A stretch of 64,000 bases of DNA, from assembly GCA_030693235.1 (NCBI GenBank), contig JAUYBE010000006.1:2758-66757 (forward strand), given 5' to 3'. The notes under the pieces were generated by a model. That model saw only the letters and a list, made by a program, of their open reading frames with translations, had not been told where the DNA came from and made no database searches. Position 1 is the first letter of the stretch; each line of letters opens with the position of its first letter. This document shows, piece after piece, positions 15,536 to 52,866 of this stretch. The translations under genes and the position numbers were made by a program. This DNA comes from a bacterium. GTDB taxonomy: Bacteria > Patescibacteriota > Minisyncoccia > UBA6257 > UBA9933.

Positions 15536-16219
15536 ATGGAGAAAGAAAAACATAAGGGAGCAGGACATAGAAAGCGATTGCGGGATAGATTTTTGCAGTC
15601 AGGACTCGGCGGGTTTCTTAACTATGAAATAGTGGAATTGCTTTTGACTTTGGGTGGTTCAATTCAAGATTGCAAACAGCAGGCAAAACAAGCGATTAAA
15701 AAATTTGGCGGATTGCGGAATGCACTTGACGCCCCGCCAGAAGAATTGCAACAAATAAAAGGAATCGGCCCAAGCAGTATTTTTGGCTTAAAACTTTTTC
15801 AGGCGATTTCCGAAAGATACGCGAAAGAAAAAATTTCCAAGAAAATTCCTTTAACATCGCCAAAAGCAGTGGCGGACTATTTGAGACAAAAACTGGGCAG
15901 AGAAAAGAAAGAAAATTTTGTAATTTTATCATTGGATAGCCGCAATAATTTAATAAAAGATGCCATTGTTTCTGTTGGCACGCTTAACGCTAATTTGGTT
16001 CATCCCCGCGAAGTTTTTAAAGAAGCAATTGACGCTCGCGCGGCTTCGGTAATCGTTGCTCACAACCACCCCTCCGGCGACTCGGAGCCGTCAGAAGATG
16101 ATTTGGTGATTACCAAAAGATTAGTAGAAGCTGGCAAAATTATGGGTATTGAAATAAACGACCATATTATTGTCGGTAAAACAACCTATCGCAGTTTAAA
16201 GAAAGATGGAGTTATATGA
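15536..16219 (+). CDS. radC: RadC-like JAB-domain protein (UPF0758)
   Basis: There is an HhH N-terminus. 'VAHNHPSGDSEPSEDD' is the JAMM/RadC motif. Confidence 0.8.
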   Translation: MEKEKHKGAGHRKRLRDRFLQSGLGGFLNYEIVELLLTLGGSIQDCKQQAKQAIKKFGGLRNALDAPPEELQQIKGIGPSSIFGLKLFQAISERYAKEKISKKIPLTSPKAVADYLRQKLGREKKENFVILSLDSRNNLIKDAIVSVGTLNANLVHPREVFKEAIDARAASVIVAHNHPSGDSEPSEDDLVITKRLVEAGKIMGIEINDHIIVGKTTYRSLKKDGVI

Positions 16220-18588
16220 CTAATCCACAAAATCAAAATTTATCAGAACGGGATATTTGTACCAAGTTTATAACCCCCGCGCTCGTAAAAGCCGGGTGGG
16301 ACGTACAAAAACAAATTCGCGAAGAGGTTTCATTTACCGCAGGCAGGATTATTGTCCGCGGCAAAACTGTATCTCGGGGAAAAGCCAAACGCGCCGATTA
16401 CATACTCTACTATAAATCCCATTTTCCTCTCGTTGTTATTGAAGCAAAAGACGCGGACCACTCGCTCGACGCCGGTCTTCCGCAAGCCGTGGACTACGGC
16501 GAAACGCTTGACGTGCCTTTCGTCTATAGCTCCAACGGCAGCGGTTTTATTGAGCACGACCGCACAAAATATTCCGGCAACATACAGCAAGAACTCTCCC
16601 TGGAAGAATTCCCGAGCCCGGAAAATCTTTACGCGCGTTATCGGGCATGGAGAAAAATTGCCGCGCCGGAAGAAAAAATCATCAACGAGGAATACTTTGA
16701 AGATATCGGCGGAAAACAACCCCGCTATTTCCAGCAAATCGCCATCAACCGCGCCATTGAGGCAATCGTCAAAGGCCAACAGCGCCTGCTTTTGGTCATG
16801 GCGACGGGCACGGGAAAAACATACACTGCGTTTCAAATCGCCTGGCGCCTGTGGAAAGCCGGAGCCAAAAAGCGAATTCTCTTTCTTGTTGATAGAAACA
16901 TTCTTGCGGATCAGCCGCGCCTGAACGATTTCGCGCCCTTTGGCGACAAAATGACAAAAATCACCCAAAGAAACGCCGACAAAGCCTACGAAGTGTATCT
17001 CGCGCTTTATCAGGCAGTTACCGGAACCGAGGAAGAAAGAAACATCTACAAGCAGTTTTCTCCGGATTTTTTTGACTTGGTTATCGTTGACGAATGTCAT
17101 CGCGGCAGCGCTAAGGCAAACTCCGCGTGGCGCGAGATTCTGGAATACTATTCCGGCGCGACGCAAATCGGCCTTACCGCAACCCCGAAAGAAACCAAAG
17201 ATATTTCCAACATTGAATATTTCGGCGAGCCCGTCTATACCTACTCTTTAAAGCAAGGCATAGAGGACGGTTTTCTTGCGCCCTACAAAGTGGTGCGCAT
17301 TACGCTTGATAAAGACCTTGAATGGCGGCCGGAAGCGGGCACGGTTGACGTGGAGGGAGAAGAAGTTCCCGACCGGATTTATAATGTGCGCGACTACGAC
17401 AGAAATATCATTCTTGATAAACGAACCGAGGTGGTGGCAAAAAAGATTACCGAATTTTTGAAAAACACCGACCGTTTTGATAAAACCATTGTCTTTTGCG
17501 CAAACATCAATCACGCCGAGCGGATGACCCGCGCGCTCATAAACGAAAACGCCGATCTCGCGAGCCAAAACAGCAAATACGTGGTGCGTATTACCGGCGA
17601 CCAGCCGGAAGGTAAAAAAGAGCTTGATAATTTTATCAATCCGGAAAGCAAATATCCGGTCATTGCCGTAACTTCCAAATTGATGACCACAGGCGTGGAT
17701 GCCCAGACCTGCAAAGTCATCGTGCTTGACCAAATCATCAACTCCATAAGCGAGTTTAAGCAGATTATCGGCCGCGGCACCCGCGTGCACGAGGACTACG
17801 GCAAATTTTTCTTTACCATTATTGACTTTCGAAACGCCACCGAGCTTTTTGCCGACCCCGCGTTTGACGGCCCGCCAATCCAAATTTACGAACCAAAGAA
17901 AGACGAATCGCCTGTGCCGCCCGAAGCATCGCCAGAGCACTCAGAGAATCAGGCCACGGCCGCGGAAGAAGAAACCGTGATTTACGACATCGCGTCCGAT
18001 GGCGCCGGCGTTGTTCGGGAAAAGCCAAAAGTGTATCGCGTGCGGGATGTTGAGGTGAAAATCATTCAGGAGCGGGTACAATACTACGATGAAAACGGAA
18101 AACTTATTTCCGAGTCGCTCAAGGACTACAGCAAAAAATCGCTTCTTAAAGAATACGCCTCGCTGGACGAATTTTTGAACGCTTGGAAAAGTTCCGAACG
18201 CAAAGAAGCCATCATTGAGGAGTTGCGTGAGCGCGGCGTTTTTCTTGACGAATTAAAACGCGAAACCGGCAAGGACTTGGACGAATTTGATCTCATCTGC
18301 CATGTGGCGTTCGGCAAGCCGCCGCTGACGAGGTATGAACGCGCCGAGAATGTCAAAAAGCGAAATTATTTTGCCGCATACGAAGCCAATGCCCGCGAGG
18401 TGCTTTCCGCCCTTCTTGAAAAGTACGCGGATCAGGGCATTACCGCGATTGAAAATCCGGAAGTGCTTCGCGTCTCGCCCTTCATCCAGTTCGGCACGCC
18501 GTATCAGATCATCAACGACATCTTCGGCGGACGGGAGAAGTATGTGGAGGCCGTACAAAGCATGGAGCAGGCGTTGTATAGCGCGTAA
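16216..18588 (+). CDS. hsdR: Type I restriction enzyme R subunit (HsdR)
   Basis: The N-terminus 'ERDICTKFITPALVKAGWD' is classic HsdR_N. The helicase motifs are 'MATGTGKT' and 'DECHR'. It is locally GC-richer (~50%) than the window average. Confidence 0.9.
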   Translation: MTNPQNQNLSERDICTKFITPALVKAGWDVQKQIREEVSFTAGRIIVRGKTVSRGKAKRADYILYYKSHFPLVVIEAKDADHSLDAGLPQAVDYGETLDVPFVYSSNGSGFIEHDRTKYSGNIQQELSLEEFPSPENLYARYRAWRKIAAPEEKIINEEYFEDIGGKQPRYFQQIAINRAIEAIVKGQQRLLLVMATGTGKTYTAFQIAWRLWKAGAKKRILFLVDRNILADQPRLNDFAPFGDKMTKITQRNADKAYEVYLALYQAVTGTEEERNIYKQFSPDFFDLVIVDECHRGSAKANSAWREILEYYSGATQIGLTATPKETKDISNIEYFGEPVYTYSLKQGIEDGFLAPYKVVRITLDKDLEWRPEAGTVDVEGEEVPDRIYNVRDYDRNIILDKRTEVVAKKITEFLKNTDRFDKTIVFCANINHAERMTRALINENADLASQNSKYVVRITGDQPEGKKELDNFINPESKYPVIAVTSKLMTTGVDAQTCKVIVLDQIINSISEFKQIIGRGTRVHEDYGKFFFTIIDFRNATELFADPAFDGPPIQIYEPKKDESPVPPEASPEHSENQATAAEEETVIYDIASDGAGVVREKPKVYRVRDVEVKIIQERVQYYDENGKLISESLKDYSKKSLLKEYASLDEFLNAWKSSERKEAIIEELRERGVFLDELKRETGKDLDEFDLICHVAFGKPPLTRYERAENVKKRNYFAAYEANAREVLSALLEKYADQGITAIENPEVLRVSPFIQFGTPYQIINDIFGGREKYVEAVQSMEQALYSA

Positions 18589-18680
18589 ACCAAAGAGTCG
18601 GGGAGTTTGTATATCTCGATTGACTTAATTGATACAAACAGATATACTTTGTATAAATCTTAAAAAAGATTGATACGACT

Positions 18681-19814
18681 ATGAATACAGTAGAAATAGG
18701 TAAAAATAGGCCGCAAAAAGAAGGTTTTAACGCCTTTATTCCAAATTTGTTTCCACCTAATGGCGGGTTTAGTTTTGATGCGAAAATTCTCAAAAAGAAT
18801 GACGAGGCAACGCGCCTGCTAGGTAAACTTGATGGCATTACCCAACTTTTGCCGGACATAGATTTTTTTCTTTTCATGTATATTCGCAAAGACGCCGCAT
18901 CTTCAAGCCAAATTGAAGGGACGAGAGCGACGATGATTGATGCCATTGAAGCGGAAGCAAAAATTGATTCTGATATGCCGGAAGATGTTAATGACATTCT
19001 GCACTACATCAGAGCGCTCAATTACGGCCTCGCGCGGCTTGAAGAGTTTCCTTTTGTTTTGCGTTTTTTGCGTGAACTTCATAAAGAGCTGATGATAGGG
19101 GCGCGTGTAAGCCATTTCTCCAGCCCCGGTGAGTTTCGGGAAAGTCAAAATTGGATCGGCGGCACGCGCCCCGACAACGCGCATTTTGTTCCGCCGCCCG
19201 TGGATGAAATGAAACGCGCGCTTGCTGACCTTGAAAAATTCATCCATGCAAAAGACAATGAACTTTCTCTCATCAAGGCCGGTCTTGCGCACGCGCAATT
19301 TGAGACAATCCACCCGTTCCTTGATGGCAACGGACGTACGGGGCGCATGTTGATCACCTTCTATCTTTGGAAAGAAGGGCTTTTGGAAAGACCGGTCCTG
19401 TTTCTTTCTTCTTATTTTAAGAAGCATCAGAAAATATACTATGATCGCCTTGATAAATACCACGAAGGTGATGTGGAAGCGTGGATGGATTTCTTTCTTG
19501 ATGGCGTAATTGAGATTGCTAAAGAGGCGATAGGAACGGTTTTTTCGATTACCAAGTTGCGGGAACAGGACGCGATGAAAATACAGTCGTTAAGCAAACG
19601 CGCTTCAGAAAGTGCGGTGTTGGTGCTGCCCCAGCTTTATAAAATGCCAATTGTAAATGTGGCGAAAGTTCGGGAGTGGACAGGATTTACGCATGCCGGC
19701 GCGCAGAATCTGATTGATCGGTTTGTTGAACTTGATATTTTGCGCGATCGTAATCCAAATGTAACATACGGTAAATCATATATGTATAAAAAATACGTTG
19801 ATATTTTCGTTTAA
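18681..19814 (+). CDS. Fic/Doc family protein inserted between hsdR and hsdM
   Basis: It carries the Fic motif 'HPFLDGNGRTGR'. Confidence 0.85.
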   Translation: MNTVEIGKNRPQKEGFNAFIPNLFPPNGGFSFDAKILKKNDEATRLLGKLDGITQLLPDIDFFLFMYIRKDAASSSQIEGTRATMIDAIEAEAKIDSDMPEDVNDILHYIRALNYGLARLEEFPFVLRFLRELHKELMIGARVSHFSSPGEFRESQNWIGGTRPDNAHFVPPPVDEMKRALADLEKFIHAKDNELSLIKAGLAHAQFETIHPFLDGNGRTGRMLITFYLWKEGLLERPVLFLSSYFKKHQKIYYDRLDKYHEGDVEAWMDFFLDGVIEIAKEAIGTVFSITKLREQDAMKIQSLSKRASESAVLVLPQLYKMPIVNVAKVREWTGFTHAGAQNLIDRFVELDILRDRNPNVTYGKSYMYKKYVDIFV

Positions 19815-19818
19815 CACT

Positions 19819-21205
19819 ATGTCCGTTCAATCCATTATAAAATCAATCCAAGACATTATGCGCCAAGACGCCGGCGTGGACGGCGACGCCCAGAGAATTT
19901 CCCAAATCGTCTGGATGGTTTTTTTGAAAATGTTTGATGACAAAGAAAAAGAATACGGAACGCTTGACCCAAAATATAAATCTCCCATCCCCGAAAAACT
20001 TCGCTGGCGAAACTGGGCGGCAGACGAAGAAGGAATAACCGGCGAAAAACTGCTGGACTTTGTCAATAACGTTCTTTTCAAAGGATTCAAAAATCTTCCC
20101 GCGGGAGGCGACGCGCGCGGCCTGATTGTCCGCCAGGTGTTTGAAGACGCCTACAACTATAATGAAGTCCGGCACGCTTATCCGGCAGGTGGTAAATAAA
20201 ATTAACCAGATTGACTTTAACCGCAAAGACGAACGGCATCTTTTCAACGATATCTACGAACATATGTTGAAAGAGCTCCAGAGCGCGGGCAACGCAGGAG
20301 AATACTACACGCCGCGCCCGATCACGGAATTTATCGTGGAAATGACCGGACCCAAGCTCGGCCAAAAAATTCTTGACCCGGCCTGCGGCACCGGCGGATT
20401 TTTGGCAAACGCCATTGAATACATCCGCGGCCGCGAAGTCAAAAGCCCCAAAGACGAAAAGAAATTGCAGGAGTCGCTTTTTGGCGTGGAGGTCAAGCCG
20501 CTTCCGTATTTGCTCGCGATTACCAATCTTATGCTGCATAACATAGAAGTTCCCCGGCAGATTCGCCGCGCCGATATGCTGGCGCGTCCGCTTCGCGACT
20601 ATGGGCCGAGCGACCGGGTTGATATCATTGTTACCAATCCTCCTTTTGGCGCCATGGTGGCCACCGGCACCGATGCAAACTTTCCCGCGGAACTGCGCAC
20701 GCGCGAGACAGCAGACCTTTTCCTGGTGCTCATTATGCATCTCTTAAAATCCGGCGGGAGCGCTGGCATCGTGCTTCCGGACGGCTCGCTTTTCGGCGAA
20801 GGGGTAAAAACAAGAATCAGGGCAAAACTTCTGGAAGAATGCAATCTGCACACTATCGTGCGCTTGCCGCAGGGCGTATTTTCTCCCTACGCGGGCGTAA
20901 AAACAAACCTGCTTTTCTTTACCAAAGGAGAGCCCACCAAAGAGATTTGGTATTTTGAACACCCTCTGCCCGAGGGCTACCGCGCCTATTCCAAAAATCG
21001 CCCCATCCAGTCAAAAGAATTCGCGCTGGAGCGCAAGTGGTGGCAGAACCGCAAAAAAACCGCCAACGCCTGGAAGGTTTCCATTAAAGAAATCAAAGAC
21101 CAAAACTATAACCTTGATTTCAAAAACCCCAACGGCAAAACCGACCTCGCCCACAAGCCACCCGCGGAGTTGGTGAAGATATTACAAAAAATGAAAATGA
21201 AATAG
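19819..21205 (+). pseudogene. hsdM: Type I RM methyltransferase subunit HsdM, interrupted by a +1 frameshift (extra A at ~20161). It may be a sequencing error rather than genuine inactivation.
   Basis: HsdM_N is in frame 1 ('...RQVFEDAYNY' ending at 20199). The remainder is in frame 2 from 20126 ('MKSGTLIRQVVNKINQIDF...EYYTPRP...DPACGTGGFL...NPPFG'). The two parts are contiguous in the HsdM consensus 'VFEDAYNYMKSGTLLRQVINKI' if one A is removed from 'tataatg' at 20158-20164. Confidence 0.8.
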
Positions 21206-21428
21206 GTACAATAGTGGGTGAAATAAAGCAGATTTTATAGAATTCCATTCTAAATAATGTTCCAACGGCATTTCAGTTCCTAATTGTAATAGTTACTGAA
21301 TTTGAGGTACAGAGCAGTAATTTTTTCGAAATAGGGGTGTGGATAACTACCCCTATTGACTTTTTATATTACCCCGTGTAGTATTCCCAGTATGGGAACT
21401 ATGAACTGGGTAACCCGTATAAAAAAAT

Positions 21429-21716
21429 ATGAAATTAATAGGCAAACAATCATTGCAAGATTTTATAGGAAGGCATGCCGATACTCGATCACAGATTGAA
21501 TCGTGGAAGGCTGAAGTCGAAGAGGCAAAGTGGAGCACCCCACACGAGATTAAAAGCAAATACCCCAAGGCAAGTATTTTAAAGAATCAAAACGTAATTT
21601 TCGATATTTGTAGGAATAAATATCGGTTGTGGGCGAAGGTCAATTATAAGAACGGGTTAGTTTTGATAAAAAATATCGGCACACATAAGGAATATGAGAA
21701 ATGGGAAATAATTTAG
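21429..21716 (+). CDS. higB: HigB-like type II toxin (RelE superfamily)
   Basis: 'SWKAEVEEAKWSTPHEIKSKYPKASIL...CRNKYRLWAKVNYKNGLVLIKNIGTHKEYE' matches the HigB_toxin pattern (NKYRLI...FIGTHAEYD). Confidence 0.7.
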   Translation: MKLIGKQSLQDFIGRHADTRSQIESWKAEVEEAKWSTPHEIKSKYPKASILKNQNVIFDICRNKYRLWAKVNYKNGLVLIKNIGTHKEYEKWEII

Positions 21717-21724
21717 CAAACAAC

Positions 21725-22939
21725 ATGGACAAAATTAGAATCATAAAAACTGAACAAGATTATAAAGAAGCTCTCAAATTAGTCGAGAAGCTAATAATCT
21801 GTGATCCAAATCCAGATTCTCCCAAAGGAGAACAACTTAACCTTCTTGCCATTCTTATTCAAGATTATGAAGCGAGAGCCTTTCCAGAAATACTTCCCAA
21901 CCCAATTGAAGCTATCAAATTTAGAATGGAGCAAGCTGAACTCAAGCCCGCCGATCTCATTCCATATATTGGCAGTCGAAGTAGAGTATCCGAAATTCTT
22001 TCAGGTAAGCGCCAACTCACTTTGGATATGGTAAAAGCCTTATCTGATGGACTTGGAATTCCGGCGAAGGTATTAATAAAAAAACCTGATGAAAAAGAAG
22101 AAACAGAATACCAAAATTGGGATAACCGTCTTGTAGCAGAAATGGAAGCGCGAGGTTATTTCGGAAGTGCTTCAATAAAAAAATCCGGTAAAATTGAATT
22201 GCTCAAAAATTTCTTTTCGTTAGTTAGTTCTCCAGCCCAGATGGTGGGTATGTTGCGCAAATCTAGCTACAGATCATCTCCACTAACAGATAAACACGCA
22301 TTGTCTGCTTGGGCTAATCGTGTACTCAAAAAAGCTCAGAAGGTTAAAATAACAAAAAAATATAAGCACGGCACTATAGATATTAATTTCTTACAGGAGT
22401 TAGTAAAATTAAGCGCAAAAGAGAACAGCCCTATTTTAGCTCAAGAATATCTGAAGAAGTACGGAATTGTATTGGTGATTGAGCCTCATTTTTCTAAAAC
22501 CTATCTGGATGGTGCGGCCATTCTTGTAAATAAAGATAACCCGATTATCGGTCTAACCCTTAGATACGACCGGTTAGATAATTTCTGGTTTACTATACTG
22601 CACGAATTGGCACATATCGTCCGACATTACGATAGCGGTATCAGTCTCTTTTTCGATGAGATCGAAGGAATAAAAGCGATTGACTTAGATGAAAAAGAAA
22701 AAGAAGCCGATGCGTTAGCTGAGGATATTATTCTACCGAAAGCTAAATGGGAGATCAGTCCTGCTAGACTCATCCCTTCTTCTATGGCGGCAAATAGCTT
22801 GGCTAATGAGCTTGGAGTGCATATAGCTCTTGTCGCCGGGCAAATCAGGCATAAAGGAAATAAGTACGTTTATTTAAACAAAATTGTGAACGAATCTAAA
22901 GTTAGAAATTATTTCCCCAACGAAAAGTGGAATAAATAA
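21725..22939 (+). CDS. HigA-like HTH antitoxin fused to an ImmA/IrrE-family zinc metallopeptidase domain (HEXXH); the track ORF starts at 21701
   Basis: The N-terminal HTH is 'RSRVSEILSGKRQLTLDMVKAL'. The C-terminal 'FTILHELAHIVRHYD' is the HEXXH of COG2856/ImmA peptidases. Confidence 0.7.
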   Translation: MDKIRIIKTEQDYKEALKLVEKLIICDPNPDSPKGEQLNLLAILIQDYEARAFPEILPNPIEAIKFRMEQAELKPADLIPYIGSRSRVSEILSGKRQLTLDMVKALSDGLGIPAKVLIKKPDEKEETEYQNWDNRLVAEMEARGYFGSASIKKSGKIELLKNFFSLVSSPAQMVGMLRKSSYRSSPLTDKHALSAWANRVLKKAQKVKITKKYKHGTIDINFLQELVKLSAKENSPILAQEYLKKYGIVLVIEPHFSKTYLDGAAILVNKDNPIIGLTLRYDRLDNFWFTILHELAHIVRHYDSGISLFFDEIEGIKAIDLDEKEKEADALAEDIILPKAKWEISPARLIPSSMAANSLANELGVHIALVAGQIRHKGNKYVYLNKIVNESKVRNYFPNEKWNK

Positions 22940-41800: not shown

Positions 41801-43600
41801 ATGCCCAGAACAAAATTTTTACAATTAGCCGAGGTTTTTGAACGGCTGGAAAAAACAGCTTCCAGTTTGGCGATGATCGATATTTTAGCGGATTTTTTCC
41901 CGAAAATTTCGCCGGAAGAAGCGAAAATCAGCGCTTATCTTTTGCGGGGCGAGCTGGCTCCGGCTTACGAAAATTTGGAAATCGGTTTGGCCGACAAGAT
42001 GGTAGCGCGGGCGATTGCCAAGTCCGAAAATATCAAAGTTGAAAAGGTAAAACTTTTATATAATAAAACCGGCGATTTAGGATTGGTGGTTGTCTCCCTG
42101 CGGGAGATGTCCCGAAGGGACAAAAATTTAAAATTGAAATCTTCGGTCGTCCGACGACCGAATATTGATTTTTTGACGGTTAAAGAAGTTTTTGAAAAAC
42201 TGATTGAAATTGCCAGAATCGGCGGCGAGGGTTCGCAAGATAAAAAAATAAATCTTTTGGCTGATTTATTCTCAAAGACCTCCAATCTTGAGGCAAAATA
42301 TATTATTAGAACAATTCTGGGGACATTGCGATTGGGAGTAGGCGAAATGACTTTTCTTCAAGGATTGGCCAAAGCGTTCGGAGCGGGCAAAAAAGACAAA
42401 GAGATTTTGGAATACGCCTTTAACGTTTTGTCGGACTTGGGCGAAATAGCTTGTATAGTTTCCGAATCGGGAATTAAAAAAATTTCAGAAATTAAACCGA
42501 AAGTTGGAGCGCCGATCAGAGTAATGCTGTCCAACAGAATTCAGGAATTGGAAGAAATAAAAGATCATATTTCCGGCTTGGTTTCGGTTGAAGAAAAATA
42601 TGACGGCGAAAGAATTCAGGCGCACATAAAAAAAACCGGCGAAACTTCGCTGTTTTCCCGCCGGCAGGACAATATCACTCATCAATACCCCGACATTATT
42701 GATGGCTTAAAAAAATCTTTCGCAGGCAAGGAAGCGATCGTTGAGGGAGAAGTCGTGGCCTACAATGAAGCTAAGGGAAAATTGTTGCCGTTTCAGGTTT
42801 TGATGTCGCGGCGGCGGAAACATAATATTGAAGAATACGTCAAAAAAATTCCGGTTCGTTATTTTTTGTTTGATTTGCTTTATTTGGACGGCAAAAATTA
42901 TTTAAAACAGCCATTGAAAGAAAGAAGAGCGGTCTTGGAACGTTCTTTTTCCGATAAAGGCGGGAAGAAAATCAATCCGATTAATTTCGGCAGATACGCG
43001 ATTACGGACGATTTATCTGAAATTAAATCTTATTTCAACGATTCAATTAAGCGCGGAGCCGAAGGCGTGATGATTAAAGATTATTCCGGTATTTATCAAG
43101 CCGGTTCGCGCGGCTGGCTTTGGATTAAATTTAAAAAAGAATATCAGAAAGAATTAGCGGACAATTTTGATTTAGCGGTAATTGGCGGGCTTTACGGCGC
43201 CGGCCGTCGGGCAAAAACTTATGGTTCTCTTTTAGTCGCGGCCTATAATCCTATCACAAACAAATATTATTCTTTTACTAAGGTTGGCACCGGTTTTACT
43301 GATGAAAATCTGTCCCGATTAATGAAAATGTTTGAAAAATATAAATTAAAAGAAAAGCATAAATCGGTGGAAACAGGAATGAAACCCGATGTCTGGTTTG
43401 AGCCGAAAATCGTGATGGAGATTTCCGGCGCGGAGATAACAGTTTCGCCGATTCATACGGTGGCAAAAGACAAAATCAAGACCGGCGGCTTGGCTTTGAG
43501 ATTCCCGAAGTTTTTAAGATGGCGCGAAGATAAATCCGCCGAAAACGCCACCACGGTTGAAGAAATTTATAATATTTACAAAATGGGAGTGAAAAAGTAA
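41801..43600 (+). CDS. lig: ATP-dependent DNA ligase (archaeal/eukaryotic-type, LigB family)
   Basis: Motif I is 'EEKYDGERIQAH' (KxDG). The adenylation and OB domain layout fits, and the C-terminus is 'LRFPKFLRWREDK'. Confidence 0.85.
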   Translation: MPRTKFLQLAEVFERLEKTASSLAMIDILADFFPKISPEEAKISAYLLRGELAPAYENLEIGLADKMVARAIAKSENIKVEKVKLLYNKTGDLGLVVVSLREMSRRDKNLKLKSSVVRRPNIDFLTVKEVFEKLIEIARIGGEGSQDKKINLLADLFSKTSNLEAKYIIRTILGTLRLGVGEMTFLQGLAKAFGAGKKDKEILEYAFNVLSDLGEIACIVSESGIKKISEIKPKVGAPIRVMLSNRIQELEEIKDHISGLVSVEEKYDGERIQAHIKKTGETSLFSRRQDNITHQYPDIIDGLKKSFAGKEAIVEGEVVAYNEAKGKLLPFQVLMSRRRKHNIEEYVKKIPVRYFLFDLLYLDGKNYLKQPLKERRAVLERSFSDKGGKKINPINFGRYAITDDLSEIKSYFNDSIKRGAEGVMIKDYSGIYQAGSRGWLWIKFKKEYQKELADNFDLAVIGGLYGAGRRAKTYGSLLVAAYNPITNKYYSFTKVGTGFTDENLSRLMKMFEKYKLKEKHKSVETGMKPDVWFEPKIVMEISGAEITVSPIHTVAKDKIKTGGLALRFPKFLRWREDKSAENATTVEEIYNIYKMGVKK

Positions 43601-43821
43601 ATTTGGTTACGCTTACAAAACAAAAACTTCCCGTGAGCGTTTTAAATAAAATTTTAAGCGGATTTGATTTGGGCAAATTGAAAGAAATTAAGCCGTTTAT
43701 AGAAATAATAAATAAAGTTGCGATAAAAAATTTATAGTATTAAAATAAACAATATGCAGATTTTAAAGAATGGCGACTGGGTGGAGGTGAACGCGGAAAA
43801 GGGAATGGTAGGGTTTTTAAA

Positions 43822-44922
43822 ATGATTAAGTATGAAAAGAAAATTGAAGCCGGAATTGATTACAAAAAAGCTGTTTTTTGGGCCAGGGAATTTCGGATGC
43901 CTTTGTTTTGGATTGGCGATAAAGAGCGCAAAATCTTCCAAAAGAACAACCTGGTTTTATATAGAAATTCAGTGATTGTCATGTTTCATCTGAACGGGCG
44001 GGAAGTAGTTTGGGCGGAGGAGGGGCTTAATTATTTTTCCAGCTTCCAGAAGATTGAAGATTACGAAAAGAAAGTTAAGGAGTCGTTTTTAGCAATCGAT
44101 AAATTTCTGGCTGACCTGAAGAAAATAAACCCAAAAAAATTAAGCAACTCGGAGCTGGAGGCCTGGTTCGTCAAAACGCTAAAATTGCTGACCAATTTCA
44201 GCAATATTTATACTCGGACAGAACCCGCTTTTATGGCTGAGTTTGAGAAATTAAAATCAAATGAGAAGGCGATAAAAAAATTAGGTCAATTGCGATTTGC
44301 TTTGCGGGAAAAATGCGACCCGGTTTGGCAGGTTTTAATGGGTAAGATTTGCGGCCAAATCGCTCGAAAAGCTGGACGGCGAGGACTTGACCTTTTCTTT
44401 TATACAAAAGAAGAATTGATTGGGCTTTTAAAGGGGAAAGCAGTTTCGGAAAAAGTGATTAGCAATCGTCGGGGAGGATACGCTTTAATTTCTTTGGCTA
44501 ATGGAGAAAAAATATTAAAGACTGGCAATGGGTTCAGAAAAATTTACCGGTTACTCTTGACTCAACCAAAGAAAATAGTTGAAATTAAGGGACAGACGGC
44601 CTGCCAAGGCAAGGCCAGGGGTAGGGTTAGGATAATTTTGCACAATAAAAAAGATATTTCCAAGGATGTGGCCAGATTTAGACAAGGAGAGATTTTAGTT
44701 ACGGAAATGACCCGGCCGGATACTGTTATGGTTTGTCGCCAAGCCGCCGCCATAATCACTGATGAGGGAAGTATCACCAGTCACGCCGCCATAATTTCGC
44801 GCGAGCTGGGCATTCCCTGCGTGGTTGGCACCAGGCACGCAACGCAGATTTTAGAAACCGGCGATTGGGTAGAAGTGGATGCCACCAAGGGATTAGTGAA
44901 GATAATAAATAAGAATAGTTAA
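43822..44922 (+). CDS. Protein with a C-terminal PEP-utilising-enzyme mobile (swivel phosphohistidine) domain and an unassigned N-terminal region
   Basis: 'VTEMTRPDTVMVCRQAAAIITDEGSITSHAAIISRELGIPCVVG' is the PEP-utilizers signature with the phospho-His. Confidence 0.6.
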   Translation: MIKYEKKIEAGIDYKKAVFWAREFRMPLFWIGDKERKIFQKNNLVLYRNSVIVMFHLNGREVVWAEEGLNYFSSFQKIEDYEKKVKESFLAIDKFLADLKKINPKKLSNSELEAWFVKTLKLLTNFSNIYTRTEPAFMAEFEKLKSNEKAIKKLGQLRFALREKCDPVWQVLMGKICGQIARKAGRRGLDLFFYTKEELIGLLKGKAVSEKVISNRRGGYALISLANGEKILKTGNGFRKIYRLLLTQPKKIVEIKGQTACQGKARGRVRIILHNKKDISKDVARFRQGEILVTEMTRPDTVMVCRQAAAIITDEGSITSHAAIISRELGIPCVVGTRHATQILETGDWVEVDATKGLVKIINKNS

Positions 44923-44927
44923 AAATT

Positions 44928-45683
44928 ATGTCGGAAAAATTTAAGGAAATCATTGAAAAAAAGGAAAGCGTGCCGTTTGAAGCCGATATGCGGGTGGATT
45001 TTTTCCGTCATGGCAAGGTAAATTATACTGCGGAAGAATTAGCTTCCGCCAAATATGAAGGCCAGCTGGGAGATGTCGGCAGAAAGCAGGTAGAAGCAGG
45101 GGCGCAAAAATTAGCCCAATCAATTGATAGGGAGCGAGAGTTAGTCGTGCTTTGGGCCAGTCCCAGGCAAAGAGCTCAAGAGTCGGCCGAAATTATCGCT
45201 GAAATTTTAAAAGCAGAGAATATCGGCGTTATTCAGAAATTGGGTAAAAAAGATATCAGGAAAATAGGAGCTTTAAGAGATGTTGGCTTGAGCCCGGAAT
45301 TTATGAAGGCCAAAGGACCCGACCGGGATTGGATGGAATTTTGGGATAAAGCTGATAATTTGCCCGAGAGCACGGAAGCTCCCGAGAGTCTTAAAGAACG
45401 TTCATTGAGAATATTGGCTTACTTGGAAAAAATTTCCCGCTTGATTTCACCACCGGCTGATAAGAAATTACATTTTATTTGCGTGGGGCACGAGGAAAGC
45501 TTTAAAGAGTTGTTGAGCGAGGGTTTTGGTCAGGGCGTTGAAAAAGAGAGTCGGCCGGCCAATGCGGAAACCATGAGACTGGATATTTTTCATTCCGGCG
45601 CCAAGCCAGAATTTAGGTTAAAATATAGAGATGAGGAAGCAGATTTAAAATTTGATTCGGCCGAAAGAAAGATCTATAAATAA
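44928..45683 (+). CDS. Histidine phosphatase superfamily (PGAM branch) protein
   Basis: 'VDFFRHGK' (RHG) and the second His in 'FICVGHEESF'. It is tightly packed between the two PEP-synthase-like genes. Confidence 0.55.
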   Translation: MSEKFKEIIEKKESVPFEADMRVDFFRHGKVNYTAEELASAKYEGQLGDVGRKQVEAGAQKLAQSIDRERELVVLWASPRQRAQESAEIIAEILKAENIGVIQKLGKKDIRKIGALRDVGLSPEFMKAKGPDRDWMEFWDKADNLPESTEAPESLKERSLRILAYLEKISRLISPPADKKLHFICVGHEESFKELLSEGFGQGVEKESRPANAETMRLDIFHSGAKPEFRLKYRDEEADLKFDSAERKIYK

Positions 45684-46630
45684 TGAAAATTTACACTAAA
45701 CAATTTAAACAATTAAGTAAAGTCGATGTGGCCATCGCCGGCGGGAAAGGGGCGAGCTTGGGTGAGATGGCGCAAGCAGGCTTTCTTGTTCCGCCGGGTT
45801 TTGTAGTTTTGGCGAGCGCGTTCGAGAAATTTTTGGAAGAGACGGATTTAAACGTGGAGATGAGCGCGATTTTAAAAAAGGTGAATTACAAAGATATTAA
45901 TTCGGTTGATAAGGCCTCAAATCAAATCGGGGATTTGATCGCTGACGCGGATTTTCCTAAAGACATTGGTAAGGAAATAAAAAAAGAATTTGGCAAGATG
46001 GGTGTCAAATTTGTGGCCGTGCGTTCTTCCGCCACGGCCGAGGACTCCTCGATTGCCTCTTGGGCAGGGGAGTTGGAAAGTCATTTGAATGTTGATGAAA
46101 AAGACTTATTTGAGGCGGTTAAAAAATGCTGGGCTTCTCTTTTTACTCCCCGCGCCATATTTTATCGTTTTGAAAAGAATTTGCAAAAGCAAAAAGTTTC
46201 AGTGGCGGTGGTGGTGCAGGCAATGGTGCAGTCGGAGGTTTCGGGCGTTGCTTTCACCGTGCATCCCGTAACCGAAGACAGAAATCAGATGGTTATTGAA
46301 GCGGGTTGGGGTCTCGGCGAGGCGATAGTGGGCGGAAAAATCACGCCTGATACCTATATTGTCGCCAAAGACAGCTTAGAAATTTTGGATAAAAATATTT
46401 TTTCCCAGGAGATAAAAATCGTTAAAGACGGTTTGGGCACAAAAGAAGAAGCGGTTGAAAAGAGCGAACAGGAAAAACAGAAGCTGACTGATGAAAAAAT
46501 CATTGAACTTGCCAAAATTTGTAAAAAAATAGAAGAGCATTATGGATTTCCGCAAGATATTGAATGGGCGTTTGAAAAAGAAAAATTTTATATTGTCCAA
46601 AGCAGGCCAATAACCACTTTAGTTGAATAA
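45683..46630 (+). CDS. PPDK_N-like PEP/pyruvate-binding (ATP-grasp) domain protein, PEP-synthase N-terminal homologue
   Basis: 'DVAIAGGKGASLGEMAQAGFLVPPGFVV' and 'FVAVRSSATAEDS...SWAGELES' are the hallmark of the PEP synthase/PPDK N-domain. Confidence 0.65.
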   Translation: MKIYTKQFKQLSKVDVAIAGGKGASLGEMAQAGFLVPPGFVVLASAFEKFLEETDLNVEMSAILKKVNYKDINSVDKASNQIGDLIADADFPKDIGKEIKKEFGKMGVKFVAVRSSATAEDSSIASWAGELESHLNVDEKDLFEAVKKCWASLFTPRAIFYRFEKNLQKQKVSVAVVVQAMVQSEVSGVAFTVHPVTEDRNQMVIEAGWGLGEAIVGGKITPDTYIVAKDSLEILDKNIFSQEIKIVKDGLGTKEEAVEKSEQEKQKLTDEKIIELAKICKKIEEHYGFPQDIEWAFEKEKFYIVQSRPITTLVE

Positions 46631-52712: not shown

Positions 52713-52782
52713 GGCGGGGTGGACCAATGGTAGGTCGGGAGGCTCATAATCTCCAGAAGTGGGTTCAATTCCCACCCCCGCA
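52713..52782 (+). tRNA. tRNA with a CAU anticodon (Met elongator or Ile2-lysidine type); short D-arm, CCA not encoded
   Basis: 'GGCGGGGTGGACCAATGGTAGGTCGGGAGGCTCATAATCTCCAGAAGTGGGTTCAATTCCCACCCCCGCA'. The anticodon loop is CTCATAA and the T-loop is TTCAATT. Confidence 0.65.
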
Positions 52783-52791
52783 ACATTCTTC

Positions 52792-52866
52792 GTCGGCGTA
52801 GCTCAGTGGCAGAGCGAGGGACTCATAAACCCTAGGTCACAGGTTCGATCCCTGTCGCCGGCACCA
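52792..52866 (+). tRNA. tRNA-Met (CAU), possibly the initiator (three G-C pairs in the anticodon stem), with CCA encoded
   Basis: 'GTCGGCGTAGCTCAGTGGCAGAGCGAGGGACTCATAAACCCTAGGTCACAGGTTCGATCCCTGTCGCCGGCACCA'. Confidence 0.8.

Follow-up and report, generated by a model that had tools for sequence, protein, structure and literature searches.

In the 64,000-nt stretch of the patescibacterial contig JAUYBE010000006.1 analysed here (the window), three consecutive genes encode a swivel phosphohistidine protein (open reading frame 1, ORF1), a histidine phosphatase (ORF2) and a stand-alone ATP-grasp protein (ORF3). With moderate confidence, we read this trio as a two-component small-molecule water dikinase of the rifampin phosphotransferase (RPH)/HpeHI type together with its cognate phosphohydrolase; the dikinase part of the mechanism, taken by itself, is very likely. 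This reading is carried by the domain identities and intact catalytic motifs of the three proteins, the structural likeness of ORF1 to RPH, the linkage of the three genes in relatives and the natural fusions between the ATP-grasp and ORF1-type proteins.

Organization of the three-gene locus

The original prediction, made from the sequence alone, had proposed three genes at 43822-46630, and three same-strand ORFs lie exactly there (window positions; 932 aa in total):

43822-44922, + strand: ORF1 whole, 366 aa, N-terminal domain followed by a PEP-utilizers swivel-His domain
43822..44571, + strand: ORF1 N-terminal domain (aa 1-250), putative substrate-binding/specificity domain of a shortened RPH type
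44572..44922, + strand: ORF1 swivel phosphohistidine domain (aa 251-366), PF00391; His321 codon 44782-44784
44928..45683, + strand: ORF2, 251 aa, His_Phos_1 (PF00300); nucleophile His28 codon 45009-45011, His188 codon 45489-45491
45683..46630, + strand: ORF3, 315 aa, stand-alone PPDK_N ATP-grasp protein (PF01326)

The tight packing and the gene overlap that had been described are both present, the ORF2/ORF3 junction (TAATG) being a 1-nt overlap, but the spacer between ORF1 and ORF2, given as 6 nt, reads 5 nt (TAA, AAATT, ATG). A hidden Markov model (HMM) scan found no further swivel, ATP-grasp or related phosphatase gene in the 64-kb window. The exact ORF1 protein is missing from the NCBI protein set, while ORF2 and ORF3 have consecutive accessions (MDP3014942.1 and MDP3014943.1); in the annotation deposited with this metagenome-assembled genome, ORF1 is therefore probably left out, called in another way or flagged as a pseudogene.

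The ATP-grasp and swivel subunits

ORF3 consists of the PPDK_N domain only (PF01326, E 2.7e-104, profile positions 3-312 of 328). Its residues 1-313 align end to end with residues 1-316 of RPH (5hv6, 224 bits), and end-to-end alignments were also obtained with the N-terminus of the phosphoenolpyruvate (PEP) synthase 8a8e (265 bits) and with the stand-alone 387-aa chain 9goj (205 bits). In ORF1, the PEP-utilizers domain (PF00391) was detected at aa 287-357 (E 2e-26), and this swivel matches that of PEP synthase 8a8e with 94 bits. The catalytic motif is intact (TDEGSITS-H321-AAIISRE), with its H321 kept in every one of 29 homologues; the stretch T313-D-E-G-S-I-T-S-H321 carries GS where the family consensus is GG. 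On the PEP synthase model, ORF3 occupies positions 6-338 and the ORF1 swivel positions 353-460, while on the Rph model they occupy positions 2-313 and 699-863, respectively; the domain order given earlier for both enzymes, with PPDK_N first, is thus correct.

No Pfam match was obtained for aa 1-250 of ORF1, which had been described as an unknown N-terminal region. However, the NCBIfam Rph model and PRK06241 (a "PEP synthase" paralogue) align with ORF1 from aa 89-190 onwards, covering the final 170-270 of their ~830-930 positions, which exceeds the swivel alone and takes in the part that precedes it in these ~870-aa proteins. An AlphaFold (AF2) model of ORF1, built from 29 homologues (pLDDT 92.4, pTM 0.86), has as its top six matches in PDB exclusively entries of the Listeria RPH (RPH-Lm), including 5fbu, 5fbt and 5hv1 (best E 3e-12); other swivel-containing enzymes match it with much weaker scores. 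The RPH alignments span ~270 columns at 21-22% identity, of which ~160 lie beyond the swivel, and because the model matches RPH over this length, ORF1 is, by its predicted structure, a shortened RPH-type substrate-binding domain joined to a swivel. The first ~90 residues form a small beta sub-domain in the model. Among 18 diverse members, residues W20, E23, P27, L28, Y130, R158, Y194, E198 and R216 of the N-terminal domain are invariant. The family is rare: an N-domain-only profile run against 1.84 billion sequences gave only 39 representatives at E<=1e-30. The homologues bear names of Patescibacteria or the candidate phyla radiation (CPR).

The trio was also set against the enzymes that share its parts. 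Describing it as PEP synthase-like, as the original prediction did, overstates the case, since the PEP/pyruvate-binding TIM-barrel domain (PEP-utilizers_C) was absent from all three ORFs in the Pfam search. Assignment as a true PEP synthase was rejected on this absence and on the scores of ORF1 and ORF3 against the PEP synthase models TIGR01418 and PRK06464 (109-352 bits vs cutoffs of 598-740). Membership in Rph itself was rejected as well, with ORF1 at 64 bits and ORF3 at 299 bits against a cutoff of 999 (NF041857); RPH is a single ~865-aa chain with a full rifampin-binding domain.

The histidine phosphatase

ORF2 belongs to His_Phos_1, branch 1 of the histidine phosphatase superfamily (PF00300, E 5.5e-12, 46.2 bits vs a gathering threshold of 21.7), and its core residues R27-H28-G29, R82 and G187-H188-E189 (RHG, GHEE) are invariant in nine homologues. 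Its AF2 model is about equally near to many histidine phosphatases (E ~1e-7, 15-20% identity), the matches including RosC, Rv2419c, PGAM5, PspA and acid phosphatases. Score, core residues and fold all agree with the histidine phosphatase that had been proposed. The model also predicts a family-specific, conserved C-terminal beta extension. A search of 5.8 billion sequences, confined to those sharing exact 5-residue words, gave nine homologues, with which ORF2 forms a small family of its own.

More specific assignments were tried and rejected. The SixA model TIGR00249 gave 25.3 bits against a cutoff of 74.5 (E 1.1e-5) and covered only aa 21-106 of the 251 aa; SixA is ~160 aa long, which makes ORF2 ~90 aa longer, while the two share the superfamily and the catalytic RHG/His core. 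Models of cofactor-dependent phosphoglycerate mutase (dPGM) gave 13-24 bits vs cutoffs of 82-316, and the scores for CobC and PspA fell far under their cutoffs. The dPGM segment NERYYGDLQG, which we take to be substrate-binding, is unmatched by ORF2 in a single pairwise alignment, to the S. pombe phosphoglycerate mutase (PGAM). ORF2 is labelled 'phosphoglycerate mutase family' at NCBI.

Linkage and gene order in relatives

For the comparison of loci, AG denotes the ATP-grasp gene, Sw the swivel (ORF1-type) gene and HP the His_Phos_1 gene. A scan of genome contigs with the full ORF1 alignment, whose patterns came from the swivel, gave mostly canonical PEP synthases and arrays and few ORF1-type loci, while a scan of metagenome contigs with the N-domain-only alignment gave 21 specific loci. 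The loci compared came from these metagenome loci, extra look-ups and an HMM scan of loci, and were reached either from ORF2 or from the ORF1 N-terminal domain.

Starting from ORF2, all four homologue contigs read place HP right after an ORF1-type gene: L085 and L086 have the order AG-Sw-HP with a stand-alone PPDK_N gene first, and L087 and L088 end early. Altogether, HP is present in the cluster at about 18 non-redundant loci and directly adjoins the ORF1-type gene in 16 of them (the window, L081, L085, L086, L087, L088, L090, L091, L093/L112, L094, L098, L099/L102, L103, L109, L113 and L114); it lies within the cluster, not adjoining, in L096/L111. The contigs of L089 and L097 end, so they are uninformative on the presence of HP. 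A stand-alone AG gene beside the ORF1-type gene is kept in >20 loci. The flanks are all different, including DNA ligase/gatCA, RecR/L21, ZnuA, MazE-PIN, an EF-Tu/ribosomal operon and ParAB. Unlinked copies in relatives, which the original prediction had named as evidence against itself, were thus looked for, and linkage was found instead. Because the three genes stay together on many unrelated contigs, the arrangement is not due to chance; and because the neighbourhood is kept despite shuffled order and differing flanks, the phosphatase is functionally tied to the swivel/ATP-grasp pair, the three genes making one unit. Overlaps of 4-11 nt between the ORF1-type and HP genes (L085, L088 and L091) suggest that the two are translationally coupled.

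The swivel-His and ATP-grasp genes had been proposed to be halves of one enzyme, and fusions between them do exist. AG, one N-terminal domain and the swivel are joined in this order in L106 (675 aa), P0083 and P0135; AG is fused to several swivels in P0150, P0132, L018 and L082; and P0226 shows the order N-Sw-AG. These fusions confirm that the ATP-grasp and ORF1-type proteins act as one enzyme.

Gene order varies among relatives. Most often it is AG-Sw-HP, but L099 and L102 show HP-Sw-AG and L081 shows Sw-HP(-)-AG; the order Sw-HP-AG was found in the window alone among the loci compared. The reversed order and middle phosphatase, to which the original prediction had given mechanistic meaning, therefore carry no such weight. 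In multi-module arrays, HP stands beside the ORF1-type module and not beside other swivel genes (L091, L094 and L102), and large arrays that do not have an ORF1-type module (L002 and L008) do not have HP either.

Several further features were observed at these loci. The AG gene of the trio is split into two ORFs in L081 (6797-7747) and L114 (5088-5953), which could reflect decay or an assembly error, and in L114 a swivel fragment of 95 aa also lies between the ORF1-type gene and HP. Sporadic neighbours of the trio or of arrays include a HIT-family hydrolase (L112, 1473-1889), an acylphosphatase (L081, 8833-9108), and an orotidine monophosphate decarboxylase with a phosphoribosyltransferase (L111, 1-1033); since none of them recurs, they give only faint hints at nucleotide or acyl-phosphate chemistry.

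Comparison with known dikinases

HpeHI of Rhodococcus, CreHI of Corynebacterium and the phenylphosphate synthase PpsAB of Thauera are characterised two-component RPH homologues, each consisting of an ATP-grasp subunit and a substrate-domain/swivel subunit; in HpeHI-type enzymes the swivel His is essential and AMP is produced (PMC12167813). The split of the two catalytic domains noticed in the original prediction is thus real here, but it already has precedents in these three systems (PMC12167813). As in these enzymes, a stand-alone PPDK_N subunit (~35 kDa for ORF3, ~40 kDa for HpeI) is encoded beside the second subunit, in which an RPH-type substrate domain, here cut to ~250 aa, is followed by a swivel with the motif T-x-x-G-G/S-x-x-x-H around the catalytic His. 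The Hpe pathway also has a dedicated phosphatase, HpeD, whose substrate is an intermediate further down the pathway (PMC9618137). However, HpeD is of the HAD/NagD fold, unlike the His_Phos_1 fold of the trio phosphatase, whose gene directly adjoins the dikinase genes with no carboxylase or oxidase between. The hosts of the trio are CPR bacteria and DPANN archaea and not degraders of aromatic compounds. HpeH, CreH and PpsA are ~45% identical to one another, and ORF1 was set against them by size and description: it has 366 aa vs ~640 aa (71 kDa) in HpeH, with a substrate domain about half as large, which argues for a separate subfamily.

RPH of Listeria (5FBS, 5FBT, 5FBU and 5HV1) consists of the same three parts, namely ATP-grasp, substrate and swivel domains, and is both the best structural match of ORF1 and aligned end to end by ORF3 in its ATP-grasp part. 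It differs in being one chain (ATP-grasp, rifampin-binding and swivel domains), in having the rifampin-binding domain that ORF1 mostly does not have, and in a model on which the trio scores far under the cutoff. The ATP-grasp and swivel of PEP synthase and pyruvate phosphate dikinase are the closest relatives in sequence, but the trio is split and has a helical RPH-type domain in place of the TIM barrel. In plant glucan water dikinase (GWD), the His domain stands ahead of the C-terminal ATP-binding domain, within a single chain (PMC13553574), as ORF1 precedes ORF3. GWD differs from the trio in being a single large chain with carbohydrate-binding modules, of which ORF1 has none. It is likewise functionally paired with a phosphatase, since SEX4 and LSF2 are phosphoglucan phosphatases acting on the GWD product; these are dual-specificity phosphatases and not His_Phos_1 proteins, and the comparison implies homology only for the domains that both systems have.

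Proposed mechanism and its alternatives

In the proposed mechanism, ORF3 would bind ATP and pyrophosphorylate His321 on the ORF1 swivel; the gamma-phosphate would leave as Pi, with AMP being formed, and the swivel would return with the beta-phosphate to the helical N-terminal part of ORF1, where this phosphate would pass to a hydroxyl of a putative small molecule. ORF2 would hydrolyse a phosphomonoester of the same metabolite family, its target being either a downstream product derivative, as for HpeD, or a phosphate at another position. With a different target or position, the kinase/phosphatase pair would not run as a futile cycle. The placement of HP speaks for a function linked with the substrate of the ORF1-type module, because HP goes with ORF1-type modules, while a generic reset of phosphohistidine would be expected beside any array.

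Several observations weigh against this mechanism. The Foldseek TM-scores between the ORF1 model and RPH are low (0.4), to which differing domain orientations in the model and the crystals may contribute. The N-terminal domain of ORF1 has ~250 aa vs ~450 in RPH and HpeH, and its profile alone found no significant match among PDB sequences, so the first ~90 residues have no assigned homology. The ORF2 model reaches moderate confidence only (pLDDT 72). A kinase and a phosphatase that share one target group would run a futile cycle, unless different positions or derivatives are used, and no transforming enzyme recurs beside the trio in the loci compared. ORF1-type loci with no HP within ~5 kb do exist (L082, L083 and L106). 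Finally, the closest relative, L089 (~80% identical in nucleotides where its ORF1 and ATP-grasp segments align), has the order Sw (322 aa), ORF1 orthologue, AG, with no phosphatase between Sw and AG; the middle position of the phosphatase in the window is therefore a recent local feature.

The alternative that survives best, although we consider it unlikely, is that ORF2 acts as a phosphohistidine phosphatase on His321 of ORF1, or removes a regulatory phosphate from nearby Thr319, and so throttles or resets the dikinase. SixA, of the same His_Phos_1 superfamily, is reported to act on catalytic or carrier phosphohistidines, including those of NPr and nucleoside diphosphate kinase (PMC7948535, PMC6282199, PMC12934123). 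The weak match of ORF2 to the sixA model, the T-S-H motif kept in ORF1, the overlapping stop/start codons, which suggest stoichiometric co-expression, and the lack of a transforming enzyme between kinase and phosphatase in the cluster would all fit such a role. However, the sixA match lies far under the cutoff and is confined to 86 N-terminal residues, and the conserved C-terminal beta extension of ORF2 is unlike SixA. Moreover, the swivels within arrays are 44-79% identical, so a general phosphohistidine phosphatase should accompany any array, whereas HP stands only beside ORF1-type modules and is absent from the large arrays L002, L008 and L083.

It is quite unlikely that ORF1 and ORF3 form an RPH-kind phosphotransferase inactivating antibiotics or other xenobiotics, with the arrays of relatives being multi-drug versions and the phosphatase an accessory or unrelated. 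RPH is the best structural match, its family counts kinases of antibiotics and of zearalenone among its members (PMC4844700, PMC11768653), CPR resistome surveys count rph-like genes (PMC8651080), and divergent N-terminal domains on conserved swivels would suit many ligands. Against this, a tightly coupled cytoplasmic phosphatase would reverse the inactivation, ORF1 scores far under the Rph cutoff, and the rifampin-binding domain is mostly missing.

The original prediction had suggested a phosphotransfer relay of unknown substrate, which is not the best-supported reading. In such a relay, phosphate would pass from ATP to swivel His321, then to His28 of ORF2 and on to an acceptor, or ORF2 would act as a primed mutase, with the ORF1 N-terminal domain docking ORF2; we regard this as very unlikely. 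Enzymes of the histidine-phosphatase fold use a phospho-His intermediate and dPGM requires a priming phosphorylation, the N-terminal domain of ORF1 falls short of the usual size of an RPH-type substrate domain, and HP strictly adjoins the ORF1-type module. However, no fusion of HP to a swivel or ATP-grasp was found among 10 multi-domain or atypical-length matches of the N-domain profile scanned with Pfam, ORF2 has neither the dPGM segment (in the single S. pombe PGAM alignment) nor a score near the dPGM cutoffs, ORF1-type modules with no HP exist (L082, L083 and L106), and the many invariant Arg, Tyr, Glu and Trp residues of the N-terminal domain are of the kind usually seen in catalytic or ligand sites. 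A genuine but split PEP synthase that serves gluconeogenesis or glycolysis together with a phosphoglycerate mutase is highly improbable: ORF3 and the swivel do match PEP synthases best by sequence and ORF2 does bear its NCBI label, but PEP-utilizers_C is absent, the PEP synthase model gives 117 and 352 bits vs a cutoff of 598, and the dPGM scores stay at 13-24 bits.

Multi-module arrays and remnants of lost modules

In relatives from CPR bacteria and from DPANN archaea (Woesearchaeota, Micrarchaeota and Nanoarchaeia), modules made of a divergent N-terminal domain and a conserved swivel-His domain are strung together, up to eight at a time, as tandem genes or as giant fusion proteins, and such an array often has a single ATP-grasp:

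L083/L084, 556-10161: 7 array genes
L002, 3-10887: 8 array genes
L010, 1-8028: polyprotein of >2,676 aa with 6 swivels
L037, 1-7716: polyprotein of >2,572 aa with 7 swivels
L018, 4084-10068: 1,995 aa, one ATP-grasp and 4 swivels
L082, 2-10079: >1,666 aa, ATP-grasp and 4 swivels, then 4 more genes

In contrast to the conserved swivels, the N-terminal regions within arrays mostly have no BLAST-detectable likeness to one another, which fits one charging domain serving many specificity modules. A 553-aa protein adjoining the swivel array of L082 (10769-11068, the gene running off the locus) combines HTH_17/MerR-type DNA-binding matches with a PEP-utilizers swivel, and may be a phosphorylation-controlled regulator or a module whose target is not a small molecule. 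A literature search on CPR, Patescibacteria or DPANN together with swivel, dikinase or PEP-utilizers, whose coverage was incomplete so that absence is not proof, returned no description of these arrays; the sole related match was a CPR resistome survey counting rph-like genes (PMC8651080).

The locus in the window is a minimal, rearranged version of these larger loci. Directly upstream of ORF1, a remnant was found:

43754..43825, + strand: vestigial swivel-gene tail, a 23-codon mini-ORF (MQILKNGDWVEVNAEKGMVGFLK*) sharing ATGA with the ORF1 start

Its translation resembles the C-terminal end of ORF1-type swivel domains, and at the nucleotide level it shares 52/67 positions with the 3' end of the ORF1 orthologue in L089 and 39/54 positions with the 3' end of ORF1. 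L089 holds the same remnant, whose frame is broken by a 5-nt deletion, so the remnant is old and non-functional. With this tail, the window shows the scar of a multi-module array. In L087 (1-237), the ATP-grasp reading frame continues at its C-terminal end into the final ~35 residues of a swivel, which looks like a deletion scar of a lost intervening module, of the same kind as in the window.

As a tentative extension, CPR bacteria and DPANN archaea could possess an undescribed system that distributes phosphoryl groups at the expense of ATP, with the trio as its smallest version; in it, one ATP-grasp would charge many interchangeable carrier modules. The substrates of this system could be a range of small molecules that are scavenged or come from a host, and its ORF1-type module would need a dedicated histidine phosphatase. 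Its logic would resemble that of Enzyme I feeding several branches of the phosphotransferase system, but its parts are of the RPH type. One possibility for the chemistry of the ORF1-type module within it is that a phosphate is relocated via a bisphosphate intermediate.

Other features of the window

A 221-nt spacer separates the trio from the ATP-dependent DNA-ligase-like ORF directly upstream, a 599-aa ORF (41801-43600) with a KYDGER motif, which we take to be the adenylation motif of ATP-dependent DNA ligases. Downstream, ORFs that are presumably gatC-like and gatA-like, their names being read off the translations, begin 3 nt past ORF3. A scan for promoters and terminators gave counts equal to those of shuffled sequence, and one weak promoter-like site was located at 43718-43746. 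No ORF matched the anti-phage defence models of PADLOC, and no relatives of the trio were found in the viral contigs searched. Rfam identified only three tRNAs, all elsewhere in the window; at 52713-52866, a gap of 7 nt separates two tandem tRNA-Met (CAT) genes. The region 16001-22000 has a G+C content of 0.45-0.49, compared with 0.28-0.42 elsewhere, and contains several overlapping antisense ORFs.

Implications

All two-component RPH-like dikinases characterised to date serve the catabolism of aromatic compounds, and the 2025 HpeHI paper explicitly anticipates that homologues act in other processes (PMC12167813). The trio would add a compact, CPR/DPANN-restricted subfamily of such dikinases with a conserved His_Phos_1 partner. 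Symbionts with reduced genomes invest heavily in its multi-module versions, some of which are polyproteins of >2,500 aa with 6-7 phosphohistidine carrier domains. The small trio is an easy target for in vitro work, and the multi-module context adds to its experimental appeal. The arrays could supply natural modular small-molecule kinases, and the identities of their substrates could show how organisms that do not have most biosynthesis capture and process metabolites.

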